Positions 25,218 to 26,249 of a stretch of DNA of 64,000 nt are shown piece after piece. A program made the position numbers and the translations under genes. The notes below the pieces were generated by a model that had not been told where the DNA came from, searched no databases, and saw nothing but the letters and a program-made list of their open reading frames with translations. The DNA lies in NCBI GenBank assembly GCA_040397175.1, contig JBBAWM010000003.1:1-64000 (forward strand), in the 5' to 3' direction. Within the stretch, counting starts at the first letter, position 1. The number at the start of each line of letters is the position of its first letter. Source of the stretch: Candidatus Limnocylindrus sp. (lineage in GTDB: Bacteria > Chloroflexota > Limnocylindria > Limnocylindrales > Limnocylindraceae).

Positions 25218-25250
25218 CGAGTCAGAGGCGGCTTCTGGTATCGTGTGCGC

Positions 25251-25301
25251 ATGACTAGCATGCAGCTCCGCGCACTTGAGGGTGAACCGTCGATCTGTTG
25301 A
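25251..25301 (+). CDS. Putative leaderless leader peptide MTSMQLRALEGEPSIC upstream of sseA
   Basis: TGgTATCGT-6nt-ATG; 16 codons; shares GEPSIC with the cysK leader. Confidence 0.75.
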   Translation: MTSMQLRALEGEPSIC

Positions 25302-25361
25302 CGCTCGCATCGCGCCAACGCTGATTGAACACATAACCCATCAATGATTGAGGAGAGAAAA

Positions 25362-26249
25362 ATGAGCAACGTACCTCTTGATCCAACAGAAAAGTTCCAG
25401 GAGTACGCCACTCCGGGCGCACTCGTCTCAACCGAGTGGCTCGCCGCCAACCTCAACACACCAGGGCTGGTTGTGGTGGAGTCAGACGAAGACACGCTCC
25501 TCTACGAGACTGGGCACATCCCAGGAAGCGTCAAGGTGGACTGGCACACCGACCTGAACGACCCCGTGTCTCGCGACTATGTCGGACCTGAAGACTTTGC
25601 GGCGCTGATGTCACGCAAGGGGATCGACCGCGACACCACCGTGGTCTTCTACGGCGACAAGTCAAACTGGTGGGCCGCCTACGCCCTCTGGGTCTTTCGC
25701 CTCTTCGGCCACACCGAGGTGCGCCTCCTTGATGGCGGTCGCCAGAAGTGGGAGGCAGAGGGTCGCGAGATGTCCAAGGCTGTGCCGACGCGCGCGGCCA
25801 CAAGCTACCCGCTCTCTCCGCGAAACGACAGTGATCTTCGTGCCTACCGCGAACAGGTGATCGAGCACGTCGGCGCCAAGGGCTGCATGGTGGACGTCCG
25901 TTCACCACAAGAGTTCAGTGGCGAGCTGACGCACATGCCCGACTACCCACAGGAGGGGACGCTCCGTGGTGGCCACATCCCAGGAGCGAAGTCTGTCCCG
26001 TGGAAGCGAGCCGCCAATGACGACGGCACATTCAAGGGGGTCGCCGACCTTCGCGCCATTTATGAGGGTGAAAAGGGCCTAGCGGCCGACGACGATGTGA
26101 TTGCCTACTGCCGAATTGGTGAGCGGTCGAGCCACACCTGGTTTGTGCTCACCTACCTGCTCGGCTTCAAGAACGTCCGCAACTACGACGGGTCGTGGTC
26201 AGAGTGGGGCAACGCCGTTCGACTTCCGATCGCCGTCGGCGCCGAATAG
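25362..26249 (+). CDS. sseA: Thiosulfate/3-mercaptopyruvate sulfurtransferase (tandem rhodanese)
   Basis: LVSTEWL, GHIPG twice, active-site [25 protein letters not shown]. Confidence 0.92.

Follow-up and report, generated by a model that had tools for sequence, protein, structure and literature searches.

What does a 16-codon open reading frame with a single cysteine codon do in front of a sulfurtransferase gene, and does the encoded peptide take part? The sseA-sufE locus of Candidatus Limnocylindrus sp. raises this question in the stretch of 64,000 nucleotides analysed here, which is called the window in the following. A sequence-only reading had described the upstream open reading frame (uORF) as a candidate arrest peptide that senses cysteine. 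From the comparison of related loci it is likely that this leader of freshwater Chloroflexota switches sulfur and cysteine genes on at cysteine shortage.

The sequence of the locus is as had been described. The uORF of 16 codons with one Cys starts 6 nt downstream of an extended -10 element (ATG at 25251), ends at a TGA (25299-25301), and is separated by 60 nt from sseA, which has an SD of its own (Table 1). A leaderless start of the uORF is predicted, and promoter prediction called no sigma-70 -35/-10 pair. For sseA itself 25362 is the likelier start, because an in-frame ATG 18 nt upstream (window 25344-25361), which overlaps the SD, is missing in one subgroup of the genus. A gene for a MarR-family regulator (window 26725-27282, minus strand) lies convergent with sseA-sufE and divergent from a LUD-domain gene.

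Table 1. Features of the sseA and cysK leaders and of the genes behind them (positions in the window)
Feature	Position	Strand	Basis or predicted role
Extended -10-like element TGGTATCGT (TG-n-TATCGT)	25236..25244	+	Sequence; predicted leaderless start
Leader uORF MTSMQLRALEGEPSIC, then stop	25251..25301	+	Sequence and conservation in the genus
Conserved context L-R-A-L-E-G-E-P-S-I	25266..25295	+	Predicted pause enhancer inside the exit tunnel; putative function
Sensing Cys codon UGU	25296..25298	+	Wobble-read by the sole tRNA-Cys (GCA); sensing role predicted
60-nt spacer with SD GAGGAG (25350-25355)	25302..25361	+	Predicted pairing with CTCC of uORF codons 6-7
sseA-type thiosulfate/3-mercaptopyruvate sulfurtransferase gene	25362..26249	+	PF00581, tandem rhodanese; putatively regulated gene
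sufE-family gene, directly 3' of sseA on the same strand	26265..26711	+	PF02657
cysK and cysE-like genes	60898..62774	-	Putatively regulated operon
Paralogous leader uORF MTAADLIAQAAGEPSICRCPSLFFGPSCAR, then stop, before cysK	62857..62949	-	Sequence; 30 aa
-10-like box TACACT, 6 nt 5' of the ATG of the cysK leader	62956..62961	-	Sequence

Conservation of the motif upstream of sseA in relatives had been named as a check, and it was found. Among 18 sseA loci fetched from the genus Ca. Limnocylindrus, 16 include upstream DNA, and in all 16 (this genome included) the -10 box, the 6-nt spacing and the uORF are kept, the box conforming to TANNNT 6 nt 5' of the ATG in every case. The 21 distinct leaders of the sseA type encode four peptides, which differ at positions 4 and 14 alone and all have exactly one Cys. 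When 301 genomes of the order were scanned with a DNA pattern, the motif was present in 36 of the 42 genomes of the genus, compared to one of 259 sister-family genomes, and this lone match has neither an upstream start nor a target gene. Judged by its conservation, the leader in front of sseA is a real, conserved leader ORF of the cysteine type. In one locus of the genus (L011, G016:C43) the -10 box and the first five uORF codons are tandemly duplicated just 5' of the sseA leader; the first copy runs into a stop, and this is either a duplication or an assembly artefact.

The hexapeptide GEPSIC had been reported to recur in the leader of cysK. A search of the 1.38-Mb genome in six frames indeed finds exactly two copies, with 0.048 expected from composition. 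The second uORF ends 82 nt before cysK (TIGR01139 over its cut-off), which is followed by the cysE-like gene, whose serine O-acetyltransferase product matches NF041874/TIGR01172. It is kept in 20 of 20 cysK loci of the genus (22 loci, 20 of which include upstream DNA; this genome included), so that a conserved, cysteine-linked leader stands before both operons. The description 'single Cys' fits the sseA copy, while the cysK copy has three (GEPSICRCP...SCAR, then stop). Among 160 leaderless-like short ORFs of the genome, three combine UGU at codons 12-25 with a long SD-led ORF behind them, and two of these are the leaders described here. All other matches to EP-x-x-C in the genome lie in coding or antisense sequence.

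Neither operon seems to be ancestral in the genus. Genus-type cysK has no match at E below 1e-90 in 191 other genomes of the class, and the nearest outside relatives of sseA that carry names belong to Actinobacteria and Gemmatimonadota (about 70-72%, compared to about 50% in the sister family). From these comparisons, both genes appear to have been acquired horizontally, and they would then have been supplied with a copy of the leader.

A third paralogue in the genus (MSAAELIASVAGEPSICRR...LAR, then stop) was exposed by the scan of the 301 genomes in front of a gene for a DUF4395 membrane protein. In the window's own genome, whose assembly is 91.5% complete, DUF4395 was not found by tblastn. 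Outside the genus, the motif DLLxRLEGEP[C/S]xC recurs before DUF4395 in two further families of the class, with most of its variation at the third base of the codons; a class search returned MVCASDLLSRLEGEP[C/S]ICTRRGAAA (then stop) and similar leaders, likewise in front of DUF4395, from a family that belongs to another order. The class consensus of the uORF context is L-x-R-L-E-G-E-P-[C/S]-[I/T].

Searches with fixed patterns gave a wider view. A peptide-plus-promoter pattern matched at least 118 loci in GTDB (55 of 64 parts), comprising 57 genus-type leaders, five leaders before DUF4395 with GEPCIC (type MTxELLxLHEGEPCICRRRG) and 56 unrelated matches, which were discarded (8 in frame without a common target, 48 out of frame). 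In 401 genomes of the phylum a GEPCIC pattern occurred at 10 places in 9 genomes, of which the one in G041 alone is a leader; both patterns would miss diverged motifs, and absence elsewhere is therefore limited to these patterns. Another 13 matches in viruses looked like chance and were likewise dropped. A metagenome scan gave 49 matches, 39 of them before DUF4395, 2 with the same peptide and no DUF4395 match on the available DNA, and 8 unrelated. Outside the genus, no target other than DUF4395 was seen for GEP-type leaders, and inspection of ORF starts 3' of DUF4395 revealed no common sulfur neighbour in the class.

To avoid circularity, a further survey was anchored on DUF4395 and made no use of the motif. 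DUF4395 is present in 125 of 220 class genomes, unpublished ones counted; the latter were left out of all later steps. In 88 upstream regions that were read, a Cys leader was found in 43, with a picking rule that ignored GEP and favoured frames with more Cys on ties. While the family is mostly of the type C-x-C, the leaders of the DUF4395 copies of the genus have one Cys. One of the 43 loci is from Nocardia and consists of a thioredoxin gene, a poly-Cys leader, DUF4395 and a sulfurtransferase gene; its leader matches NF042933, the Ms5788A family, with E 3.4e-8, which is below the family cut-off. Since this Ms5788A-type leader precedes DUF4395, the class-wide leader family and the mycobacterial type have a downstream gene in common. 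As far as sequence comparison can tell, the three copies of the genus (sseA, cysK, DUF4395) are paralogues of this class-wide C-x-C family before DUF4395, and the earlier idea of a 'different design' is not supported.

Some leaders of this family are unusual. In a second clade of DUF4395, they have alternating cysteines and end on CxCxC-R-stop with UGU last (L360, L362-L365, L367, L369-L371, L376-L378, L387, L410), and in one further family most DUF4395 loci are without any Cys leader. Seven leaders of the distant family (L289, L290, L420-L423, L428) have no ATG or GTG within 10 codons of LEGEP; their start lies further upstream or is non-canonical. The promoters of cysK and DUF4395 in the genus (window 62982-63000, minus strand; L083-L088) share TTGC-N8-GCAGTAA about 20 nt 5' of the -10 box, with the form TGCAAC-AT-GTTGCA in L049. 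This might be the site of a regulator, and the sseA promoter does not have it.

Is the peptide context in front of the Cys selected as a peptide? In the sseA uORF, pairwise differences (which are non-independent) are synonymous versus non-synonymous at 420 versus 115 in frame 0, 55 versus 492 in frame 1 and 60 versus 491 in frame 2. Seven leaders from two orders, all from the 88 regions read without the motif, have DLLxRLEGEP, in which the codons for L, E, E and P differ synonymously. In 62 distinct rows, positions outside every search pattern are conserved as well (D at -12 in 43, L at -11 in 46, R at -8 in 43), and more than one synonymous codon occurs for G, for E and for P, although the residue invariance of G-E-P in these rows arises from their selection. 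Counted from the presumed stall site, the residues L-10, L-7, E-6, G-5, E-4 and P-3 are retained while their codons vary synonymously. With N-termini of different length the Cys comes anywhere from codon 16 to codon 22, so the spacing of the motif is constant relative to the Cys but not relative to the start. Ser is dispensable at position -2, where C, S (TCG, TCC, TCA, AGC), A and D all occur. Convergent Ser (TCG versus AGC) was dropped as a proof of peptide selection, because Cys (TGC/TGT) stands at this position in relatives, and TGC could have given rise to either Ser codon. Recurrence in several families, with changes concentrated at third codon positions, makes it look as if the residues ahead of the Cys were under selection as a peptide in three families, in line with the conserved context that had been proposed before.

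The same data have to be weighed against a plain hungry-codon attenuator, in which UGU alone senses and LEGEP is kept by ancestry, by RNA pairing or by the likeness of the E-G-E codons to an internal SD. Such an attenuator would account for the 35 of 43 anchored leaders that do without the GEP motif, and for a nucleotide constraint on the uORF above that on the sseA gene (synonymous change of 0.147 versus 0.273 per codon). Codons 9-11 are moreover predicted to pair with the spacer, DNA 3' of the stop is common to the sseA and DUF4395 copies, and all three genus copies share DNA past the sseA stop. Because the synonymous rate of the uORF is half that of the gene and post-stop DNA is shared, a constraint at the RNA level also acts. 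However, E-G-E-P vary solely at third positions in 28 rows (where the residues are invariant by selection, the third-position spread not), and the LEGEP motif is retained where DUF4395 itself has diverged to about 50% or less. Nor are the codons optimised for pairing with the anti-SD, which disposes of the internal-SD version: real codons reach -7.6 versus -8.4 for synonymous recodings in sseA, and -6.1 versus -8.3 in the distant family, with an 11-nt motif which we take to be the anti-SD, in place of this organism's 16S end. Compensatory pairs are absent from the 20 aligned sseA leaders. We therefore regard a plain attenuator as rather unlikely.

What the context might do is indicated by the number of cysteines. 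All 35 anchored leaders without GE[P/H] have a second Cys within five codons, whereas this second Cys is missing in 4 of the 8 leaders with GE[P/H]. Its loss is thus seen only together with the GEP context (4/8 versus 0/35), in few independent lineages. Since 35 of the 43 class members lack it, GEP is not required in C-x-C leaders; from these few lineages we infer that it may be a dispensable enhancer which permits loss of the second Cys. In a quick tree of DUF4395, the GEP types are scattered over three families, with close non-GEP relatives among them; 41 of its 95 inner branches are open, and it carries no order of events.

The most telling feature of the sensing codon itself is its third base. 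The last Cys codon is UGU in 42 of the 43 anchored leaders (the exception is Nocardia), in 41 of 41 true metagenome matches, where the pattern allowed both UGU and UGC, and in 7 of 7 C-x-C ORFs before 10 sister-family sulfurtransferases. Earlier Cys codons are UGC in 58 of 71 cases, near the 80% of the genome, in which TGT has a share of 0.20. The genome has one gene for tRNA-Cys, with anticodon GCA, so UGU is read by wobble, and wobble codons are decoded more slowly. As the last Cys codon is nearly always UGU despite a usage of 20%, the supply of Cys-tRNA is the plausible signal, which favours decoding in the A site as the sensing step. This speaks against the earlier suggestion of stalling 'rather than' codon starvation, since the bias fits tRNA-limited decoding. 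Predicted RNA pairing could also account for the bias without decoding: the U of the last UGU is predicted to be paired part of the time with A in five of six subfamilies (0.36-0.67), and unpaired in the cysK leader (0.98). ARAGORN also lists a tRNA-Ile with anticodon TAT (window 4052-4129, minus strand), which is unusual in bacteria, and called no tmRNA in the assembly.

How a pause could reach sseA was approached by RNA folding. The hairpin CGTCGA-TCTG-TTGACG, noticed earlier over the Ser-Ile-Cys-stop codons, exists but is marginal (-4.9 kcal/mol, z -1.5, with 19 of 200 shuffles folding as well), and as it lies in a different register in the cysK copy, it was rejected as a conserved element. 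The ribosome-free sseA leader is predicted to form a long imperfect hairpin, in which the CTCC of codons 6-7 pairs with the SD; its overall fold is not more stable than shuffles (z -0.65). A first footprint model, which retained the 5' part, gave small effects (sseA 11/21, cysK 3/18, non-genus DUF4395 1/11). With the 5' part removed, a ribosome at the Cys codon lowered the cost of opening the SD by more than 1 kcal relative to naked RNA in 13 of 20 sseA leaders. In the same model, the SD was easier to open with the ribosome at Cys than at the stop in 18/19 cysK leaders (again by more than 1 kcal), 9/22 of the genus DUF4395 leaders and 6/8 and 12/22 outside the genus, where 22 of 25 rows were used for the genus DUF4395 leaders and 22 of 53 for the last group. 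In a control with shuffled segments, 6/12 sseA, 1/5 cysK and 5/12 genus DUF4395 leaders fell into the best tenth, next to 1/8 and 3/12 outside the genus; the sseA leader of the window passed (1 of 30 shuffles as closed) and its cysK leader failed. The models suggest that stalling turns the downstream genes on, and they hint weakly at an RNA switch in the leader. A separate observation concerns the tail T-R-R-G-A-A-A-stop (L289-L298, L419-L467), whose sequence forms a perfect GC hairpin beginning at the Cys codon and contains GGAGCC, complementary to a downstream anti-SD. This tail is a candidate four-region switch, partly supported by the shuffle control.

The output might instead be controlled by Rho. 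The sensor would be the same, but the paused ribosome would block loading of Rho on the C-rich stretch behind the stop, so that termination of transcription and not masking of the SD is regulated. This alternative concerns the output step alone and can be combined with the explanation that we prefer. A Rho-based output is possible because Rho is encoded (TIGR00767 over cut-off) and no intrinsic terminator was called in 25251-25364, the one match lying in the upstream gene. The tract after the uORF stop is C-rich and nearly invariant, and the lake RNA contig X1, from a relative, is confined to the leader: it runs from codon 4 and breaks off 5 nt short of the sseA start. Rho has also been suggested, in the available text of PMC1262725, for predicted actinobacterial cys/cbs leaders, which have runs of Cys codons near the stop and no intrinsic terminator. 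On the other hand, contigs show neither ends nor levels, two others (X2, X5) extend from the leader into sseA, and pairings between anti-SD and SD are a repeated feature of the folds predicted for the leaders of DUF4395 and cysK. Altogether, an output through Rho seems unlikely to us.

The metatranscriptome contigs establish that the leaders of relatives are present in RNA libraries from lakes; they give no start, strand or level. In three lake studies they begin 10-15 nt inside the relatives' uORF, and in a fourth lake run the contig covers the gene upstream of the leader too. Contigs cannot map a start, and their ends are a faint hint of a transcript start near the ATG of the uORF.

A more distant possibility is an arrest peptide of the TnaC kind, where nascent chain and tunnel would bind free cysteine or another sulfur species, and arrest at the Cys or the stop would be triggered or released thereby. 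In TnaC, conserved residues lie about 12 codons before the stall site. The present leaders are similarly short, with a 13-residue motif at a fixed distance from the Cys, as expected for an interaction with the tunnel, and with free choice of codons. In the sseA copy the stop directly follows the Cys, which resembles the termination arrest of TnaC as far as it is described in the available text of bioRxiv 10.1101/2021.03.31.437805. However, this layout is restricted to the sseA copies, the stop being 6-14 codons further on elsewhere, and a ligand pocket has no need of UGU over UGC, whereas the identity of the codon appears to matter here. According to the same source, TnaC binds free ligand, stalls when the ligand is abundant and induces a catabolic operon, while the targets here include biosynthetic genes; the modelled open state at Cys, by which stalling would turn cysK on, likewise fits lack of cysteine and not its binding, though this is a weak point. 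We consider a mechanism of the TnaC kind quite improbable.

A further reading is that the uORF encodes a small protein acting in trans or that the region is an untranslated binding site for a protein. In the copies before sseA and DUF4395, short palindromes do extend over the Cys codon, but the one in the cysK copy has another sequence and another register, conservation is frame-specific, the same module stands in cis before three unrelated genes, and Rfam, searched over the whole window at gathering thresholds, matches only a tRNA. This reading is very improbable.

Taken together, we give an even chance to the explanation that the conserved 16-codon leader is a cysteine-starvation attenuator of sseA-sufE, in which the nascent peptide lengthens the pause at one hungry UGU codon. 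A ribosome would load at the leaderless start of the uORF and, when Cys-tRNA is scarce, pause at the single UGU. The nascent L-x-x-L-E-G-E-P-S-I would prolong this pause, so that one Cys codon suffices, and the paused ribosome would hold the ribosome-binding site of sseA open. With ample cysteine, termination would be immediate and the leader would refold over the SD, the control thus being translational rather than Rho-dependent. A bolder version, which we think doubtful, makes LEGEP-x-x-C a new class of arrest peptide: a portable module that arrests at one Cys codon, is gated by cysteine or a sulfur metabolite, and was copied in Limnocylindrus from DUF4395 onto the horizontally acquired cysK-cysE and sseA-sufE as a sulfur regulon without a transcription factor.

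By analogy, the mode of action would be most like that of the mycobacterial Cys leaders. These leaderless polycysteine sORF attenuators (Ms5788A, Rv2334A; the 'Cys ribulon') are described in the available text of bioRxiv 10.1101/834739 as having at least two consecutive Cys codons and targets that include cysA2 and cysK1-cysE; masking of the SD was proposed, paralogous leaders were noted, and conserved non-Cys residues were mentioned for some leaders without a test. Shared with them are the leaderless-type short ORF with Cys close to its 3' end, the position in front of a sulfurtransferase locus and of cysK-cysE, the spread of paralogous leaders to new operons, the proposed SD masking, and DUF4395, which follows a leader of this type in Nocardia. 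The sseA product is 54% identical to the sulfurtransferase of this Nocardia locus, and the Limnocylindrus targets (rhodanese-SufE, cysK-cysE, DUF4395) are sulfur and cysteine genes like those of the Ms5788A type. Different are the one Cys (sseA and DUF4395 copies) or C-x-C in place of consecutive Cys, the 13-residue conserved non-Cys context, the strong UGU bias at the last Cys and the phylum. Seven in-frame leaders matched no NCBIfam family at E up to 10. Since it has neither consecutive Cys nor an NCBIfam leader match, the Limnocylindrus leader is not a member of the Ms5788A type.

Likewise, a Cys-codon leader before cys operons without an intrinsic terminator is common to our case and the leaders of PMC1262725, which, as far as the available text goes, have Cys runs near the stop and are limited to Actinobacteria. 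In contrast to attenuators of the trp/ilv type, no intrinsic terminator hairpin with a U tract follows the leader, and in contrast to T-box and riboswitch RNAs there is no Rfam match. The available parts of PMC13236596 and PMC13096801 contain no case of a single-Cys leader. No paper on this family of leaders or on an arrest peptide that senses cysteine came up in the literature covered, which comprised open articles and preprints without paywalled journals or preprint supplements such as the leader tables and logos that accompany 10.1101/834739.

By the usual view, an amino-acid attenuator requires several sensed codons in a row. If one wobble codon with a conserved peptide context were sufficient, the conserved stretch would let one Cys codon do the work of the mycobacterial Cys run, and attenuation at hungry codons would be linked with arrest peptides. 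The natural series CxCxC, CxC, GEP-CxC, GEP-SxC and GEP-SxC-stop offers material on how the context of the nascent chain sets sensitivity. Leader control by cysteine would be extended from Actinobacteria to Chloroflexota, with a regulatory cassette reused in a streamlined lake bacterium and DUF4395 tied to sulfur supply in a second phylum. The rule that UGU comes last is moreover a handle for locating such leaders elsewhere.

The sister family may hold a parallel case. In 7 of 10 of its sulfurtransferase loci (L018-L020, L023, L025-L027) a short C-x-C ORF with TGC-NNN-TGT lies upstream, and in many cases it begins right at the stop of the gene before it. Two DUF4395 leaders (L379, CACPGR; L391, CSCPGR) encode nearly the same peptide as these ORFs, which suggests that DUF4395 and a sulfurtransferase came to share a leader a second time, independently.
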